A stretch of DNA of 64,000 bases from Candidatus Enterousia sp. (lineage in GTDB: Bacteria > Pseudomonadota > Alphaproteobacteria > Rs-D84): assembly GCA_045593065.1 (NCBI GenBank), contig JAZNVZ010000002.1, forward strand, positions 71,183 to 135,182, in the 5' to 3' direction. Under the pieces are notes generated by a model, which saw only the letters and a list, made by a program, of their open reading frames with translations, had not been told where the DNA came from and did not search any database. Positions 6,212-23,657 of this stretch are shown here, in pieces. The number at the start of each line of letters is the position of its first letter. Position 1 is the first letter of the stretch. The translations under genes were made by a program, and so were the position numbers.

Positions 6212-7606
6212 TTATGGGTTGGTATATTCTTCGCCGCTGTCGTCATATACAGAATACACGGTGCCACCAACATTAATTTTCAGGTATTGGTCGACATTAT
6301 CACTCATTTTAATATTTGCAGTAGACATGTTGGCATAATAAATCGTATTACCAATCTGTACATTTAATGTGCGTGTGGTTTGTCTGTTTTGACGCAAATA
6401 AATTGTATTTGTGCCGATATGTAATTCATATCCGCAATCGTTGGCCTCGTCTGCGCCAAAACCGTGCCCAACCGTGGTTAATCCTGTTGGGCATTGTGTG
6501 CGGATGTCGCTGTTGTTTGCGGACCAATATCCCGGTCCCACAGCAACACATACGCCGTTGTTGCGATAATAGCCGCCACCACACATTGTTCCAGAATCTG
6601 GGACCCATGCAGCATAAAATGTTTTGGGGGTTGTGGTATAAATTGGAATTGTTTGGGACATGGCGCAATCCGTCAGTGCGGAATCTGTGCACCATCCGGC
6701 AAATGTATAGTTTTGCTTTGTCGGTGTGCCAGAAATCGTTGTTGCCTCGTCGTCCCAGAATGTTGTTGGTGCGCCTGTGTAATTTGTTCCGCCGTCTAAT
6801 ACATATGTAATTGCGTATTGGGTTGCACATGATACCTTGGAATTCCAGTATGATTCATACCCTGTTATATATTGACGATGATTGGTCCCAGTGCATGATG
6901 TATCCAAACCTGTATTGTAAAATATGCTGGACATCATGGATGTTCCATACGGGTGCCCGTTTTGAATTAGTCCCCCAAATGTGGATGGCGGAATAAATCC
7001 AGACAATGATGAACAATTATAAAAAGCTTGATAAAATGTATAGTTGTATGCATCTGTTATCCCACGGAATAAATTTTCGGGAATAGATGTTATTTTTTTG
7101 CAATTATAAAATGTTCTGTAAAATCGGGGGCGCAAAGCATCCGTGGTGCCCAATATTGGGAACACAGCAGACAAATCGCCACTGATTTCAGTAAAATAAT
7201 CTTTGTTCGTGTTAGACGGTCTAAAAGAAATTGCGGGGGTTGTTGTACCATTGTAATACCCCGTGGCCACACCCCCAATTCGTATCTTGTATTCCCCTGG
7301 TTGAGAATACTGGTGTGTGATTGAATCAAGTGTTGTATTGTTGCGTGGTTTTGTTTCTGCATCACTGTTGTCGCCCCAATCAATATAAAATGTGCCGATG
7401 GCAGAGATGGAGAATGATACAGAGGTGTTTTTTTTGGACGTTTCGGCAGTAATGGTGAATTTTACATCCACACAGGAATTGTCCGGCAGGGTGATTTGGT
7501 CGGTGGTACATGCGTTTGCGGTATTTATTGCACCAAATAACAGCGCCACGGCATACCCCGTACGCATTGCAAATAATTGAAGATTTGATATTGTCAAATT
7601 ACGCAT
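6212..7606 (-). CDS. secreted cysteine-containing repeat protein, paralog of the N-terminal region of the 1116-aa protein at 29456-32806 (BspA-like LRR-type FxxCxxL repeats)
   Basis: Signal peptide (MRTGYAVALLFGAINTANA-C); N-terminal 150 aa alignable with the 29456-32806 product (FTITAETSKK...GTFYIDWGDNS vs FTVTTTNMAAN...GTFYVDWGEGT); repeated FYNCxxLxxIP motifs. Confidence 0.6.
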   Translation of the reverse strand: MRNLTISNLQLFAMRTGYAVALLFGAINTANACTTDQITLPDNSCVDVKFTITAETSKKNTSVSFSISAIGTFYIDWGDNSDAETKPRNNTTLDSITHQYSQPGEYKIRIGGVATGYYNGTTTPAISFRPSNTNKDYFTEISGDLSAVFPILGTTDALRPRFYRTFYNCKKITSIPENLFRGITDAYNYTFYQAFYNCSSLSGFIPPSTFGGLIQNGHPYGTSMMSSIFYNTGLDTSCTGTNHRQYITGYESYWNSKVSCATQYAITYVLDGGTNYTGAPTTFWDDEATTISGTPTKQNYTFAGWCTDSALTDCAMSQTIPIYTTTPKTFYAAWVPDSGTMCGGGYYRNNGVCVAVGPGYWSANNSDIRTQCPTGLTTVGHGFGADEANDCGYELHIGTNTIYLRQNRQTTRTLNVQIGNTIYYANMSTANIKMSDNVDQYLKINVGGTVYSVYDDSGEEYTNP

Positions 7607-7699
7607 CAATATAAAACCATCCCCCCACGTTTGTTGCGCTAAATCCTGATACCAGAATTGTAAGAAGTTCTGGCATTAAAAGCAAGGAGTAAAAATAAA

Positions 7700-11799: not shown

Positions 11800-12045
11800 T
11801 TATCTGGTTTTGAATTCTTTGTAAAAAACAGGGGTGTATGTTGGGCATATGGCGGGCGTATCAGGGGTGGATAAAACAGGGAATGTGTTGTTTGTAATAT
11901 TATTTTGTTTAACTGGTTCGGTTTTTTCATAACTAATAGAATTGCAAATCAATACCCATCCCGCAGAAACCAGCAGGGCGGCGGTCACGGATACAATAGC
12001 CCTGATTCCAGATATTTTTTGCTCTTCGGTTAGGCGCGATTTCAT
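11800..12045 (-). CDS. small membrane protein (81 aa), hypothetical
   Basis: ATG MKSRLTEEQ followed by a single TM helix (IRAIVSVTAALLVSAGWVLI); weak support. Confidence 0.3.
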   Translation of the reverse strand: MKSRLTEEQKISGIRAIVSVTAALLVSAGWVLICNSISYEKTEPVKQNNITNNTFPVLSTPDTPAICPTYTPVFYKEFKTR

Positions 12046-12209: not shown

Positions 12210-12455
12210 TTATCTAATTTTTCTGGCAAATGCAGAAATACCTGCGCCCGTCACAATAGAAACTGTACCGGCAACAACTTTGACAATATCTGACTTTTTC
12301 TGTTGTGATGTCCGCACTGTTTCAGATGCGCATGCACCATTGAAAATAAATATAAATCCAGCAATGGCCAAAATAAATGCCAACCCGTCAAAGCCAACAG
12401 TTCTTTTGACATTGTCGCTTTCTTTTTTTATTTCGTTTTTAATATTGTTTTTCAT
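12210..12455 (-). CDS. small hypothetical protein (81 aa) with hydrophobic segment
   Basis: ORF with a TM-like segment (LAFILAIAGFIFIF) and a downstream hairpin terminator at 12174-12212. Confidence 0.35.
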   Translation of the reverse strand: MKNNIKNEIKKESDNVKRTVGFDGLAFILAIAGFIFIFNGACASETVRTSQQKKSDIVKVVAGTVSIVTGAGISAFARKIR

Positions 12456-12779: not shown

Positions 12780-13345
12780 TTTCTTGGCATTCCAATCGTC
12801 ACCCCGCCGCAGGGCGGGGCCCAGTTGGCGCAATGCGCCAACTTGTGTAATAAAGCAAAAAAACACAAGTTTTGCGGAACGCAAAACTGGATACCGCGCG
12901 TCCGCGGTATGACGGGACTGTTTATTCCCCCGCCACAAAATCGTCACCCCGCCGCATAATCGTCATTCCGGCGCATGCCGGAATCCAGTTTGCGGAGCAA
13001 ACTTGCTCACTTATTACACAAGTCCGCCTATGGCGGACTGGATACCGCGCGAAATTCGCCCACGAAAATTTGCAATTTTCGCGGGGCCCGAAACCGCGGT
13101 ATGACGATTCTGTGGCGGAATCATCAAAATTCAAATAACACAAAAAATATTTGTGATTATAATCAAAATATGATACAATACCCAGCGACAGGTAAGGGAG
13201 AAAACCAATGAAACCCGCAGACAACAAGTAGATGACGCAAACGAAGTTTGCGGAATCGTCACGGTTGCCCCGCAGTCACGGCGCCGGGAGCGCAGCGAAC
13301 GCAGGCGGACGAGGGAATCCTACACACACCTGGAAACGAACGGAG
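12780..13345. repeat. GC-rich cluster of short palindromic repeat units (REP/MITE-like) in an otherwise AT-rich intergenic region
   Basis: Recurring units: aatcgtcaccccgccgc (x2), ATTCCGGCGCATGCCGGAAT inverted repeat, tggataccgcgcg...cgcggtatgacg (x2), tttgcggaacgcaaa / tttgcggagcaaac, tgaaacccgcaga (x2); no credible ORF. Confidence 0.6.
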
Positions 13346-13377
13346 AGATAATTATGAACAACCTGAAACCCGCAGAA

Positions 13378-13412
<35 letters not shown>

Positions 13413-13505
13413 TAGATAACATCTATTGGATGACAGATTATTAATATCGACTGGGCGCGGATGCGTTCGGTCGATATTTTTTTACATATAACGAAAGGAG
13501 AAAAC

Positions 13506-13868
13506 ATGAAACGAATTTTAGTTTTTGCGATTGGCGCGCTGTTTTTGCTGGATGGCCATGCGGCGTTGGTTGTGAATAATAATGGTCCGCAAAAGGATTG
13601 GCAAAACAATATAGAATACCAAGAAGCGCAAGAAATCGCGGCATTAGAAAACGATATTCGTTTATTGGATGCAGAAATTGCAAAGTGTCAAAAAAAGAAA
13701 AAAGCATGGACTGCGGCAACCATCGTTGGTGGCGTGGGTGTTTTGGCGACAGGAACTGCGGCGATAGTTCAAGCGTCCAAGAAAAAAGAACAAAAAACAG
13801 AATTGTCGTCCAAGCAAACAGAACTGAAACAGGCGCAGACAGAGTTAAACAGGTTAAAAAAGGATTAA
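13506..13868 (+). CDS. secreted/membrane coiled-coil protein, first of a tandem paralog pair
   Basis: AAGGAG SD then ATG; signal peptide (MKRILVFAIGALFLLDGHA), coiled coil, Gly-rich TM segment (AATIVGGVGVLATGTAAIVQ), then charged tail. Confidence 0.55.
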   Translation: MKRILVFAIGALFLLDGHAALVVNNNGPQKDWQNNIEYQEAQEIAALENDIRLLDAEIAKCQKKKKAWTAATIVGGVGVLATGTAAIVQASKKKEQKTELSSKQTELKQAQTELNRLKKD

Positions 13869-13871
13869 AGA

Positions 13872-14744
13872 ATGAAAAAATATGCGATTATTGGAATAAT
13901 AGTTGGGCTGATACCGACATATGTGTTTGGTGCCAGTGTGCGGTATAACCAGTTGATAGAAAAAAAGCAACGCAAGATGCAAGAATTAGAAAAATGCACA
14001 GGGAATGTAAATGCTTGGAAAATCGCTGGCATATCAACGACTGGATTGACGGCGGTTGGTGTTGCTGGCAATGTTGTGTTGGCAAAACAACGTGGTGATT
14101 TGGACAAAAGTATTCAAAACACAACGAACCAAATAAGCACAACCAAAGACAAGATAGCTGAATTAAAAGCAAAAAAACAAAAATCAGGGCCCAGCGAAAC
14201 AGAACAAACCCCTGCGCAACCGGAAACCCCTGCAACAGAATCTGACAACACTTGGCAAACATTGACCGATGAACAAATGAAAGAATTCTGTTATTCGCTT
14301 GTATACAATGATGAGTCGAACGACAATCTATTTGATGACGATGCTTTTCAAGAACTGAGTGATTATTATTATGAAGATGAAGGAAGGAAGCCTGTCTATG
14401 GATTTTCTAATGACGTGGATGGAGAAAAACCTGATTATTATAATTATGACTCCTCAACACGTACATGTACGTTTATATATGTGGATAAGGAAACCCGATA
14501 TGCTGGGGTGGCCTGTATCAAATTTCCAGAAATAAAGGTAGTAAAAGTCGCAGACGGCAGTGCATCAGAAGATGCAGACGACGAATGGGATATAGACGGT
14601 AAGGTTTTTACGCTGGACTTTGAAGAAGATGGTGAGTCATATTGGGTTGGCAACAAAACGCGGTTGGATGACAATGATGCCGCTTCAAGTAATTATATAA
14701 ATGAAAACCAAGAGTATTGTATAAAAACCAGCGCCAGTCATTAA
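13872..14744 (+). CDS. secreted/membrane coiled-coil protein with acidic C-terminal domain, second of the tandem paralog pair
   Basis: Same architecture as 13506 ORF (signal, coiled coil, C-x-G-N...AWKIAGISTTGLTAVGVAGNVVLA TM segment) plus a 170 aa D/E-rich C-terminal extension. Confidence 0.6.
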   Translation: MKKYAIIGIIVGLIPTYVFGASVRYNQLIEKKQRKMQELEKCTGNVNAWKIAGISTTGLTAVGVAGNVVLAKQRGDLDKSIQNTTNQISTTKDKIAELKAKKQKSGPSETEQTPAQPETPATESDNTWQTLTDEQMKEFCYSLVYNDESNDNLFDDDAFQELSDYYYEDEGRKPVYGFSNDVDGEKPDYYNYDSSTRTCTFIYVDKETRYAGVACIKFPEIKVVKVADGSASEDADDEWDIDGKVFTLDFEEDGESYWVGNKTRLDDNDAASSNYINENQEYCIKTSASH

Positions 14745-15219
14745 TTAACCCGCACCGCCCGTTTGTCCTGTTTTATCATGATGAAAACAGATGGGCGGTT
14801 TTCCCCCGATAAACAATAAAAAAGTAGGGCGAAAGGATTGGCTCGGCATAAATGCCTGCGCCGCATTCGTTAGCACTCAAACTTCGCAAGGCTCGTTTTC
14901 GTTTACTCATAATCGAACCAGACAACTTCGTTGTGATGTATCAAATCCAAATTTCGCAACGATCACAAAATTAAAACCACCATAAAGGTGGTTTGAATTT
15001 TCTGGTCGGGGGCAATTCCCCCTCGATACACAATAACAAAAATCTATAAAAATTCGTGGGGACAAAAACTCCATTTTTATGATTTTTTTAATTGTGTATT
15101 CTCGTATTCACCATGCGTGTCTTGTTGGCTGTCGCCAACAAAAACTTCGTTTTCAAACGGCACCTGTCGTGCCGTTGACACTCTGGCGCATCCTTTCGCC
15201 CCGATGTAAACAGTTTAAT

Positions 15220-15435: not shown

Positions 15436-16425
15436 ATGAAGGGATTGTTCAAAATTTTGCCTGTGTTATTAGTGCTGGTGCCGTTGGCGGGGTACGGGCG
15501 CAATGTCGTGTCGCGCGCTGCCCGGGTGACCAGTACGCCAACAGCAGGATACACATACAATTATATGTACCCTTATTTGAATAATCAAATGCGCCAGACA
15601 TTAAATCCAGGTGATGCCAATGACCAGAGTACCAGTCCTATAAATGTTTTGGTGCGTACCACACCAATGGCGGCGGCCCAAAATACCCAGGTTCGAAATG
15701 TTGCGCCGCGCCGGGCATCGCGTTCGGCGATAAATGCGGGTGGGGCAACGCCCAACAATAATCAAACAGTGGCGCGTTCCGCGCGGGGCAGTTATGCGCC
15801 AGCAACGGCAGTATCAAATATATCAAACGCGAATCGCAATGTTGCGCCGCGGCGGGCGGTTGCGCGTTCTGGGCGTTCAAATAATGCGTCAACAGTGGCA
15901 ACTGTGAATTATGCGGTTGGGGGCCGTTATGTGTCGTCCAGTCAATGCTTGTCTGATTATATGGAATGTATGAACAGTTATTGTGTGCGCACAGATATGC
16001 CGTATAATCGTTGTTTTTGCAGTTCTCGGTTGGCCCAGATTGATGGAACATACCAACCGCAAATTGATTCGTTGGTGCAACAGGTTTTGCGCGCCCGTGA
16101 TACAACCGCGTGGACAGATGCGGAAATGGCAACATATTGGTATGAAAATATTGGACAATATGTCGGCGAAAATACTTGGCAAAATCTGGACGATGCATTG
16201 GATATTGATTGGTCTGATGCAGGTGAACGTATGCGCGGTCAAAATGCCTATCTGGCGGGACACGAATATTGCGTGAATAATTTGAAAAATTGCGCGTATG
16301 CATCGCCAAATATGCGTGATTTATATCGGTCTGAAATTTCGCGTGATTGTACGGATTATGAAAATTCGTTAAAACGGTTAAAGACCGCATTGGAATCTGT
16401 GTTGGAAACATATCAAAATCAATAA
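15436..16425 (+). CDS. secreted protein with Ala/Arg/Asn-rich repeats and C-terminal Cys-motif domain
   Basis: Signal peptide; repeated NVAPRRA...ARS units; C-terminal CLSDYMECMNSYC motif resembling CTEKFMKCLTEFC in the 22392 product. Confidence 0.55.
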   Translation: MKGLFKILPVLLVLVPLAGYGRNVVSRAARVTSTPTAGYTYNYMYPYLNNQMRQTLNPGDANDQSTSPINVLVRTTPMAAAQNTQVRNVAPRRASRSAINAGGATPNNNQTVARSARGSYAPATAVSNISNANRNVAPRRAVARSGRSNNASTVATVNYAVGGRYVSSSQCLSDYMECMNSYCVRTDMPYNRCFCSSRLAQIDGTYQPQIDSLVQQVLRARDTTAWTDAEMATYWYENIGQYVGENTWQNLDDALDIDWSDAGERMRGQNAYLAGHEYCVNNLKNCAYASPNMRDLYRSEISRDCTDYENSLKRLKTALESVLETYQNQ

Positions 16426-18229: not shown

Positions 18230-18306
18230 GCGCCCATGGCTCAACTGGATAGAGCAACAGATTTCTAATCTGTGGGTTGCAGGTTCGAGTCCTGCTGGGC
18301 GCGCCA
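18230..18306 (+). tRNA. tRNA-Arg (anticodon TCT)
   Basis: GCGCCCATGGCTCAACTGGATAGAGC...anticodon loop TTTCTAA...GGTTCGAGTCC...GGGCGCGCCA; 77 nt. Confidence 0.85.
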
Positions 18307-18488
18307 TCCGTCTTTGCTAACGCAAATCCGCGATTAGCAATTTTTTTATTATGTGGAATTAGCAGGACGAGAACCGACCAAAGTTGCGTCAGCAACGACA
18401 GGTTCGACAACGAGTAGATTTTGCAAACAAAGTGCAGCAAAATCGTTAGGAATGCCCCACAGCCGGCACAATTTTGTGCCGAGCGAGG

Positions 18489-22391: not shown

Positions 22392-23657
22392 ATGAAAAAT
22401 ATCATTGCTTTGTGTGGTTTGTTGGGATTTGTATTATGTGCGCATGATGCGCTGGGGGTTGGTGTTGTTGGCGGTGTATCTAATTCTGGGGATGCCAACA
22501 CCAGTCGGGGCAGTTCGTTAATCACCAGTCCAAATACGGGTTCAAATGGTGTGCGTGGCAACCAGGCAATCGCATCTGCGTATAAACAGGCACAATTACG
22601 GAATTTTTATATCACAACCCAGGTTGATGTGGAAAGTGCATGTACAGAAAAATTTATGAAATGTTTGACTGAATTTTGTGGCGGGACGGTTGTAACTGCT
22701 GGGGTGGTGCAAAATCGTTGTCAATATGTTGATCAAAATGATTTGTACAACTATGCATTACTATGTGTGCAGAGTGATACAACCAGATTATTGCCACAAT
22801 ACGATGTTAATTCCGCACGCAGCAGCGGACCGATGAATACGGCGGCCCAGTTATGCCCACCATACGCATCATCCAGTGTGATGACTTATTTGTCCATGGC
22901 CAATATGGCAGACCAATTATCCAAGGCCAGTTCGAATTTATGTATCCAAAGACGTCAAGAATTACAGGCCGCAATGTCTTGTCATTCTGCGGCATTGACA
23001 TACGGGAACGAAACCACCAGTAAATTGGTTTCTCATTTGACAGATTATTGTGGTTCTGGGGTGCCAGGTGGGTCCGCAGAAATGGTGTCGCGGTTTGCAA
23101 ATGCCGGGAACATAGGCGCAAATGTTTGGGGATGGGCGGAAAAAATCGTATCTTTGGATGTTAATTCCAAGGGTGCAGATTGGCAGGCCGCGATGGATAA
23201 TGTTTTGGTTGGATATACGAATCGCATGAATTTGGCGTGTGGTGATAATTTACAGGTAAATACAGGAACACAAACTGTATCTACGACTGGGACAACGGCA
23301 TTGTTAACAGCGGCGGCATTGGTGGGAAATACTGTTGGAAATTCTGGAAATGCTGGCGCACAATATAACAATCCAAATGCGTATCAATCATTGTGGATGG
23401 ATGTTCTGTCAAATTATAATATATTGGATTCAAATACCGCAACCCAGGTTGTTAACGCGGCATTGGTGAATACTGCATTGACATCAAATCCATTTTTAAC
23501 CAGTGCCCAAATGACACAAATGCAAGATGCATACAAACGTGGCACCAAGGTTTTCATCATTCGTGATGGTGTTCGTTGCTTTATTGTTCCTGTGCAAACA
23601 TTGACAGACAGTGAAACATCTATGGTTGCGACACAGTTTTCTACATGCAGAAAATAA
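22392..23657 (+). CDS. secreted protein (signal peptide, Cys-motif domain, Gly/Thr/Asn-rich), hypothetical
   Basis: Signal peptide MKNIIALCGLLGFVLCAHDALG; CTEKFMKCLTEFCGG motif; no enzymatic motifs. Confidence 0.55.
   Translation: MKNIIALCGLLGFVLCAHDALGVGVVGGVSNSGDANTSRGSSLITSPNTGSNGVRGNQAIASAYKQAQLRNFYITTQVDVESACTEKFMKCLTEFCGGTVVTAGVVQNRCQYVDQNDLYNYALLCVQSDTTRLLPQYDVNSARSSGPMNTAAQLCPPYASSSVMTYLSMANMADQLSKASSNLCIQRRQELQAAMSCHSAALTYGNETTSKLVSHLTDYCGSGVPGGSAEMVSRFANAGNIGANVWGWAEKIVSLDVNSKGADWQAAMDNVLVGYTNRMNLACGDNLQVNTGTQTVSTTGTTALLTAAALVGNTVGNSGNAGAQYNNPNAYQSLWMDVLSNYNILDSNTATQVVNAALVNTALTSNPFLTSAQMTQMQDAYKRGTKVFIIRDGVRCFIVPVQTLTDSETSMVATQFSTCRK

Follow-up and report, generated by a model that had tools for sequence, protein, structure and literature searches.

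Two adjacent open reading frames (ORFs), here called A and B, lie on the plus strand of a 64,000-nucleotide stretch of DNA from Candidatus Enterousia sp. (contig JAZNVZ010000002.1, positions 71,183 to 135,182; hereafter the window), and their mutual likeness raises the question of what such a pair encodes and on which side of the membrane its products work. A and B turn out to be the usual unit of a large family of gut bacterial proteins, with a shared module and, in B, a tail that differs from one relative to the next. In the reading that we prefer, and to which we give about even odds, they constitute a Sec-exported partner operon in which the shared module serves assembly and membrane association while B carries a fast-evolving, disulfide-rich head.

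The gene pair and its shared module

The start of ORF B lies 3 nt past the stop of ORF A, head to tail on the plus strand, and A is preceded by a ribosome-binding site (AAAGGAG at 13494-13500); both are real genes and are translationally coupled. A stem-loop followed by U-rich sequence just past the stop of B is likely the operon's terminator, and on the strength of this stem-loop, the 3-nt gap and the ribosome-binding site the two genes look like a self-contained two-gene operon. Its parts are given below, with residues counted in amino acids (aa); the sister strain used for comparison throughout is locus L001, whose flanking DNA is 97.4-99.2% identical.

13506-13868, plus strand: ORF A, 120 aa, 100 when mature
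aa 1-19 of A, plus strand: signal peptide, read from the sequence by eye
about aa 36-60 of A, plus strand: acidic helix, from the secondary structure only of an AlphaFold2 (AF2) model with a predicted local distance difference test (pLDDT) score of 49.5
13686-13688, plus strand: Cys61, the single Cys of mature A, followed by KKKK
13704-13775 (aa 67-90 of A), plus strand: Gly/Ala/Thr-rich hydrophobic segment
aa 91-120 of A, plus strand: coiled coil
13872-14744, plus strand: ORF B, 290 aa
13872-14207 (aa 1-112 of B), plus strand: N-terminal conserved module
aa 1-20 of B, plus strand: signal peptide, read from the sequence by eye
aa 22-41 of B, plus strand: basic helix
13995-13997, plus strand: Cys42 of B
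14016-14084 (aa 49-71 of B), plus strand: hydrophobic segment WKIAGISTTGLTAVGVAGNVVLA
aa 72-104 of B, plus strand: coiled coil
14184-14246 (aa 105-125 of B), plus strand: Pro/Thr/Glu-rich linker SGPSETEQTPAQPETPATESD, six residues of which are deleted in the sister strain
14247-14744 (aa 126-290 of B, and the stop codon), plus strand: variable acidic C-terminal domain with four conserved Cys, partly beta-strand in the model
14754-14799, plus strand: stem-loop, then U-rich sequence (free energy (dG) -24.6 kcal/mol, z -2.7)

Read by eye, both signal sequences have an MKR/MKK n-region, a hydrophobic core and small residues at -3/-1, with predicted cleavage between GHA and A in ORF A and between VFG and A in ORF B. 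The common plan that an earlier, sequence-only reading had described for the two ORFs is indeed present at these positions in both, i.e., signal peptide, Cys-bearing helix, hydrophobic segment and coiled coil, as is the acidic tail that it had noted on B alone (43 D/E among the 178 residues of aa 113-290, net charge -29).

Pairwise BLASTP aligns A with B only marginally (EIAKCQKKKKAWTAATIVGGVGVLATGTAAIV to ELEKCTGNVNAWKIAGISTTGLTAVGVAGNVV, E 0.009), and profile-profile comparison (hhalign) of the two families gives 96% probability and an E of 2.6e-9; L, E, K, C, A, G and G are invariant in the joint alignment of 22 sequences, confirming the shared motif of a Cys followed by a Gly-rich stretch. 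Taken together, these comparisons give good support to A and B being old paralogues.

The common module spans about 90 residues and consists of a helix ending in one conserved Cys, a 23-residue Gly/Ala/Thr/Val-rich hydrophobic segment beginning six to seven residues past it, and a heptad-like helix that forms the coiled coil. In the A family 37 columns are invariant (alignment of 13 homologues). Among 177 cluster representatives of the B module, the invariant or near-invariant positions relative to the Cys are L-14, K-10, K-7, L-3, C0, A10, G11, S13, T14, G16, T18, A19, G21 and N25, the small and polar residues of the hydrophobic segment being extremely conserved. Kyte-Doolittle hydrophobicity of the segment over 19 residues is marginal in both proteins (1.84 in A, 1.42 in B). 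The AF2 model of B (70 sequences, pLDDT 62) has helices at residues 22-43 and 67-104, with block pLDDT of about 79-95 over most of their length, and strands at 189-263 in the tail (block pLDDT 51-85, best, 74-85, over 190-220), most of the tail being of low confidence.

The helix before the Cys is acidic in A (EAQEIAxLENDIRILDEEIAK, net about -5) and basic in B (RYTQLVREKQRKMEELEK, net about +2). Mature A has exactly one Cys, at the position equivalent to the module Cys that leaves B with one extra Cys. An A-B coiled coil locked by a disulfide would be the simplest reading of this odd module Cys and of the opposite helix charges.

Family distribution and cassette structure

Word-indexed searches recovered 9 relatives of B and 12 of A, none with a name. 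The true extent of the family emerged from a hidden Markov model search of 1.84e9 proteins with the joint A/B profile, which returned at least 591 cluster representatives at E<=1e-3 and 404 at E<=1e-10 (clusters at 50% identity). Nearly all of the 591 are B-type, with an N-terminal module of about 112 residues joined to mutually unrelated tails, at total lengths of 84-743 residues. Where sources carry names, these are 'hypothetical protein' from metagenome-assembled genomes (MAGs) of Alphaproteobacteria/Rickettsiales, and those record names that can be interpreted indicate animal guts (a water-buffalo rectum MAG). The family is lineage-specific, restricted to uncultured animal-gut Alphaproteobacteria and without annotation. 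A check for further paralogues, which the sequence-only reading had proposed, found none within the 64-kb window and this large family elsewhere.

An A-type gene stands directly 5' of a B-type gene in all eight assembled loci inspected (L001, L005-L010/L012/L014), with flanking genes that vary by locus, and the same order recurs in 60 of 80 metagenomic loci. The statistics below come from the metagenome scan, the genome-collection scan having given two loci only; gene order is read along the match strand.

AB, match strand: 56 of 80 metagenomic loci
ABB, match strand: 3 of 80 metagenomic loci
BAB, match strand: 1 of 80 metagenomic loci
B alone, match strand: 19 of 80 metagenomic loci, three of them at contig ends
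BBBB, match strand: 1 of 80 metagenomic loci (L053)

A-B is therefore the usual unit, while B also occurs alone or in arrays, such as the four tandem B-type genes that follow rpsK with no A in L053 (3929-8260). Two loci, L048 and L064, share one contig of 36 kb. Neither the assembled nor the metagenomic loci have a conserved third gene in the cassette. The sequence-only reading had taken the pair for a local gene duplication; by the profile comparisons and the 60 of 80 metagenomic loci, with a B family of at least 591 clusters, A and B instead represent two distinct subfamilies, A-type and B-type, united in a two-gene cassette of ancient origin.

Some loci bear signs of rapid turnover among relatives: in L006 (177-2660) A and two B genes are accompanied by an orphan piece of tail, homologous to that of B in the neighbouring strain, L012 (6001-7170) has an in-frame TAA directly after the module, and L010 (6001-7262) has a frameshift between module and tail. 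In a Rickettsiales MAG (L014, 6572-8737), an A of 109 aa and a short B of 188 aa are followed by a 721-aa signal-peptide protein, mostly helical with a Cys-rich end, and this cassette is flanked by the same ACC-carboxyltransferase and HU genes as the one in the window.

A conserved N-terminal module with unrelated C-termini, the second B with its orphan C-terminal fragment in L006 and the truncated B genes of L010 and L012 would also suit a polymorphic toxin or competition system, i.e., a delivery module with swappable C-terminal toxin domains followed by orphan modules and immunity genes. We regard this as very improbable: the 70 members scanned contain no enzymatic or known toxin domain, their tails are Cys-rich, repeat-rich and adhesin-like, the inspected loci have variable downstream genes and no conserved small one that could confer immunity, and no secretion-system genes adjoin the cassette.

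Cysteines and topology of the B tail

The number of Cys after the module Cys is even in 133 of 144 B-type tails (92%; proteins of at least 150 residues with at least one such Cys), a bias for which the binomial p of 9e-28 is an upper bound on significance, inflated by the relatedness of the sequences. Spacings between consecutive Cys are EGF-like, dominated by CxC, 4-5 and 11-14, while CxxC accounts for 0.7% of pairs; His is rare, and a few tails match CPL1-like or EGF models. CxxC spacing is typical of zinc sites, and zinc-ribbon tails were rejected on Cys spacing. A lipoprotein anchor was likewise rejected, there being no lipobox and no Cys in either predicted cleavage region.

The even Cys counts, the EGF-like spacing, the near absence of CxxC, the CPL1-like and EGF matches and the marginal hydrophobicity of the segment argue that the B tails are probably disulfide-bonded and extracytoplasmic. 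A stop-transfer helix after a cleaved signal peptide would put the tail of B in the cytoplasm; with the tail outside, the Gly-rich segment is therefore apparently not a conventional membrane anchor. This leaves the module as a topological puzzle, its hydrophobic segment apparently not halting translocation, and makes doubtful the description of A and B as transmembrane proteins in the sequence-only reading.

If the Gly-rich segment were nonetheless a true transmembrane helix, A and B would be ordinary type I bitopic inner-membrane proteins that lose their signal peptide, keep a short helix in the periplasm and have coiled coil and tail in the cytoplasm. Its 23 residues are long enough to cross a bilayer, Lys/Arg follow it in both proteins, there are weak matches of FtsL, SLATT and holin type, and an AGISTIGL-like motif is common to the segment and helix 1 of ATP synthase subunit c (AGISTlGLtAvGV in B, AGISTIGLLGAGIG in subunit c; E 0.06 over 26 residues). 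The Cys pattern of the tails, even in 92% of them, EGF-like in spacing and nearly free of CxxC, runs against a cytoplasmic location, as do the Pro/Thr linker, positive selection on the tail (see below), the KKKK that in A stands N-terminal to the segment, and the marginal hydrophobicity, above all in B; we consider this topology distinctly unlikely. In subunit c the motif packs helices tightly within the ring. B differs in lacking the second helix with its proton-binding carboxylate and in its other context, so that the likeness is best taken as an analogy for tight helix packing, not as homology.

Selection on the B tail

Ratios of nonsynonymous to synonymous substitution rates (dN/dS; Nei-Gojobori estimates), obtained from the single pair formed by the window and the sister strain, separate the two parts of B sharply.

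aa 1-112, B module: dN/dS 0.13
aa 113-290, B tail: dN/dS 2.2 (dN 0.148, dS 0.067, 22 indel positions; all four Cys kept)
five of six neighbouring genes: dN/dS 0-0.10
6212-7609, minus strand, Flg_new (Listeria-Bacteroides repeat) protein: dN/dS 0.31

In ORF A three changes are nonsynonymous and none synonymous. Synonymous divergence of the tail is no higher than in neighbouring genes, which makes the import of a divergent allele unlikely and positive (diversifying) selection the better explanation. The sister strain also provides the only homologue of the C-terminal domain of B: the D/E-rich tail is confined to this strain group, other family members having unrelated tails. The Flg_new protein, with a dN/dS several-fold above that of the housekeeping neighbours, is probably another exposed protein.

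Resemblance to known families

Scans of A, B and neighbouring ORFs against Pfam, NCBIfam, PHROGs and PADLOC brought neither A nor B to a curated cutoff, and the module of the B family has no coverage in Pfam or NCBIfam. PDB sequence searches with three profiles yielded sub-threshold matches only, and Foldseek of the B model against the PDB gave none at E<=0.001 (best 0.23). With no confident match to a housekeeping or any other family in the family, PDB and Foldseek searches, the sequence-only reading, which had recognised no family, was right on this point.

One weak resemblance recurs, namely to the hydrophobic-tipped coiled coil of XaxA-type toxins. NF033928, the model of alpha-xenorhabdolysin binary toxin subunit A, is matched by each of the 13 A-family members between profile positions 178 and 256 of 339 (best E 1e-6); A itself scores 26.3 bits (E 4e-6) against a cutoff of 125 bits. 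The B-module profile has sub-threshold PDB matches to chains of MakE, MakA and Nhe L1 type and to one unnamed chain (E 0.6-2), the core of henipavirus F being matched at levels similar to MakE and MakA, and single B proteins match the MakE, NheC and XaxA models, one each. As in XaxAB, YaxAB, MakABE and NheABC, adjacent paralogous genes encode a helix, a Gly/Ala-rich hydrophobic segment and a second helix. In XaxA the head is formed by a coiled coil with a hydrophobic tip, which penetrates the membrane only in part, and the protein acts together with the product of an adjacent paralogous gene (PMC6086661). A re-entrant hairpin of this kind keeps both ends on the same side, and would thus solve the topology problem of A and B and agree with an extracytoplasmic tail.

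A and B might accordingly work as XaxAB/YaxAB, Mak or Nhe do, as a minimal pair of alpha-helical proteins that insert into membranes. They would be secreted or displayed, with hairpins that co-insert in the membrane of a host or partner cell and a variable B head that selects the target. Although a hydrophobic segment beside a coiled coil and an adjacent paralogue are both in place, the hairpin geometry is predicted with low confidence. Alpha pore-forming toxins have about 300-400 aa, a tail bundle and a long coiled-coil backbone, whereas A has two helices only; set against the about 350-400 residues of XaxA-type subunits, mature A, at 100 residues, is three to four times smaller and lacks the five-helix tail bundle and the neck, and the AF2 model of B contains no helical bundle. 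A also has a classical signal peptide and a conserved Cys, and B a hypervariable disulfide-rich head. The NF033928 score of 26 bits is far from the 125-bit cutoff, the matched positions need not be the hydrophobic tip, no fold match was obtained, and the PDB matches, individually insignificant, may reflect Gly/Ala-rich composition beside a coiled coil. Unlike these toxins, A and B are not known to be cytolytic; we consider membership in such a system unlikely and would say that the module may work like the XaxA tip, not that it belongs with it.

Two further comparisons were rejected. SlyB/Pcp and the Rickettsia 17-kDa antigen carry a Gly-rich hydrophobic stretch that lies in one leaflet and oligomerises, and A and B resemble these glycine-zipper outer-membrane lipoproteins in being small, predicted exported proteins with such a stretch. 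They differ in having no lipobox and a segment half as long, flanked by coiled coils and a conserved Cys, and the candidate (Rick_17kDa_Anti, Gly-zipper) was dropped for want of any Pfam match at E<=1 and of a lipobox Cys at +1. An origin as a prophage or lysis-related pair, spanin-like or acting in superinfection exclusion, is hinted at by weak Rz-like matches (phrog_739, E 0.008; LysB for 2 of 70 members) and by an Imm_superinfect gene near the cassette in L010 and L012. It is barely credible and was rejected: 2.9 million viral contigs contain no relative of either profile, the neighbours are housekeeping genes, and the context is not that of a lysis cassette, with no lipobox, holin or endolysin.

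The upstream region and its repeat tract

The 1 kb upstream of A contains no plus-strand gene, and the following features were found there.

13135-13179, plus strand: two overlapping sigma-70-like promoter matches from a consensus scan, ATAACA-17-TATAAT and TTGTGA-17-TACAAT with TG
13354-13419, plus strand: predicted leader ORF MNNLKPAELY(TH)4TNR and stop, preceded by GGAGAG and containing the (AC)n tract
13382-13409, plus strand: (AC)14 dinucleotide repeat, the sole such tract in the 64-kb window
13443-13485, plus strand: terminator/attenuator-like hairpin of 16 bp with a U7 run (dG -26.7 kcal/mol, z -5.1), ending 20 nt before the start codon of A

The region of the promoter matches is conserved in the sister strain and is a candidate start of the leader/A-B transcript. 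The hairpin differs there by one compensatory double change from G-C to A-U and by one G-U change, and the equivalent leader ORF reads MKPAELY(TH)n. An Rfam scan of the window at gathering thresholds found six tRNAs only, none in the A-B leader, and a permissive Rfam scan of the 1-kb upstream region found no match.

The (AC)n tract is length-polymorphic. Among sister-strain assemblies with identical flanks, two have 14 copies, as in the window, and four have 13, i.e., a 5' repeat that differs in length between otherwise identical populations; two further sister-strain contigs break at the tract. Several sister-strain contigs (L018-L021, L004) span no more than 500-1700 bp, their ends falling at the tract or just past the A or B stop codon; this pattern suggests that sequences within a sample vary at the tract and in B and thereby interrupt assembly.

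In the sister strain, the length of the tract sets where the leader ORF ends: with n = 13 or 16 the stop lies 28 nt before the hairpin, with n = 12 or 15 on its first bases, and with n = 14 or 17 the ORF passes through the hairpin to a stop 15 nt before the start of A. A ribosome at the hairpin would prevent termination, and expression could in this way be turned ON or OFF by the tract. The leader ORF of the window strain meets a stop codon directly past the tract, owing to a C-to-T change, and only the n = 12/15 frame reaches the hairpin. As a family-wide trait the tract was rejected, other loci being without such a repeat, and its role in expression is at most a lineage-specific hypothesis. 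Of the phase-variable tract that the sequence-only reading had suspected, the variation in length (13 against 14 copies) thus stands, and any extension to the family does not.

Neisseria Opa and the repeat-controlled loci of Haemophilus are phase- or antigen-variable surface proteins of host-associated bacteria, and the cassette resembles them in joining a conserved anchoring part to a variable part apparently under positive selection, in having near its 5' end a simple-sequence repeat that differs in length between populations, and in occurring in several copies per genome (two loci on the contig of L048 and L064, four tandem B genes in L053). It differs in that its anchor is neither beta-barrel, lipobox nor pilin, and in the placing of its repeat, which is found neither in a promoter spacer nor in the coding region but within a leader ORF that precedes a terminator hairpin.

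Two stretches of this region are missing from the sister strain. The first, of 155 bp (13209-13376), has the 13-nt direct repeat TGAAACCCGCAGA on both sides and has the appearance of a small inserted element that duplicated its target; the ancestral leader ORF is broken by it into MKPADNK and stop (13208-13231) and a new start at 13354, and the stretch has no other copy in the window. The second, GC-rich and about 240 bp long (about 12800-13040), includes tandem repeats of 18-19 nt (12928-12976) together with several inverted repeats that are imperfect; it resembles a repetitive extragenic palindromic or miniature inverted-repeat transposable element and has no further copies in the window.

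Proposed mechanism

In the partner-operon reading that we prefer, the shared module would be a unit of assembly and membrane association. The acidic pre-Cys helix of A would pair with the basic one of B and an intermolecular disulfide lock the pair, while the hydrophobic segments, rich in small residues, would pack tightly and dip into the membrane without stop-transfer anchoring, perhaps as a hydrophobic-tipped coiled-coil hairpin or as an oligomeric helix bundle. Outside the cytoplasm B would then extend as a coiled-coil stalk, followed by the Pro/Thr linker and by a disulfide-bonded head that diversifies under positive selection like an exposed ligand-binding or antigenic surface, with A as the invariant small partner or base. 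In this lineage, the length of (AC)n would set the stop of the leader ORF relative to the terminator hairpin and may switch expression.

Several observations weigh against this reading. In about 17 of 77 informative loci no A adjoins B, and one locus contains four consecutive B genes, so that A is not always required in cis. There is no evident route for crossing the outer membrane, and 'surface' could equally be 'periplasmic'. The AF2 model of A (13 sequences) is unusable beyond secondary structure, and the hydrophobic segment is a low-confidence coil in the models of both proteins. The repeat tract is absent from the other family loci examined, and the read-through switch deduced for the sister strain does not carry over unchanged to the window strain.

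A bolder proposal, which we offer as a long shot, sees in the module a minimal device for membrane insertion of a kind not described before, in which an A/B coiled coil is locked by a disulfide and has a Gly-rich hydrophobic tip. With it, reduced-genome, partner-dependent gut Alphaproteobacteria would plug a variable recognition head into a host or partner membrane, or grip it, in this lineage under a new kind of leader-ORF repeat phase variation. Were this true, the module would be functionally akin to an XaxAB-type head or to a viral fusion peptide with its heptad repeat, and phase variation would gain a kind in which ribosomes arrive at a terminator hairpin and melt it, or fail to, depending on a dinucleotide repeat in a leader ORF.

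Other features of the window

Apart from the cassette and its leader, the window contains further features that set it apart from the sister strain or that have no family match.

11800-12045 and 12210-12455, both minus strand: two ORFs of 81 aa, situated between HU and the A-B leader and containing hydrophobic segments; both are gene calls, are conserved in the sister strain and have no family match
15436-16425 and 22392-23657, both plus strand: signal-peptide proteins of 329 and 421 aa, with no Pfam match
29456-32806, minus strand: ORF of 1115 aa whose N-terminus forms a hydrophobic leader, without any Pfam domain
18308-18488: about 180 bp missing from the sister strain, directly past the 3' end of tRNA-Arg(TCT) (18230-18306), an indel adjoining a tRNA gene

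The 329- and 421-aa proteins share the Cys motif C..[FY]M.C...[FY]C....NRC (BLASTP E 0.01) and may be another lineage-specific exported Cys-rich family. A protein of about 1085 aa without annotation lies near the cassette in L010 and L012.

Biological significance

Host interaction or envelope variation, the role that the sequence-only reading had proposed, is broadly right given predicted export and a tail dN/dS of 2.2, with exposure at the surface as its presumptive part. Among related gut Alphaproteobacteria there are lineages with genomes smaller than 1 Mb, for which a dependence on partner organisms is assumed (PMC12306168). The cassette belongs to a large, lineage-specific family without annotation, whose conserved module, diversifying outer part and, in this lineage, polymorphic tract suggest a role in contact. 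These uncultured gut bacteria thus have in it a concrete candidate for their contact or antigenic surface, and a useful marker of variation at the strain level.

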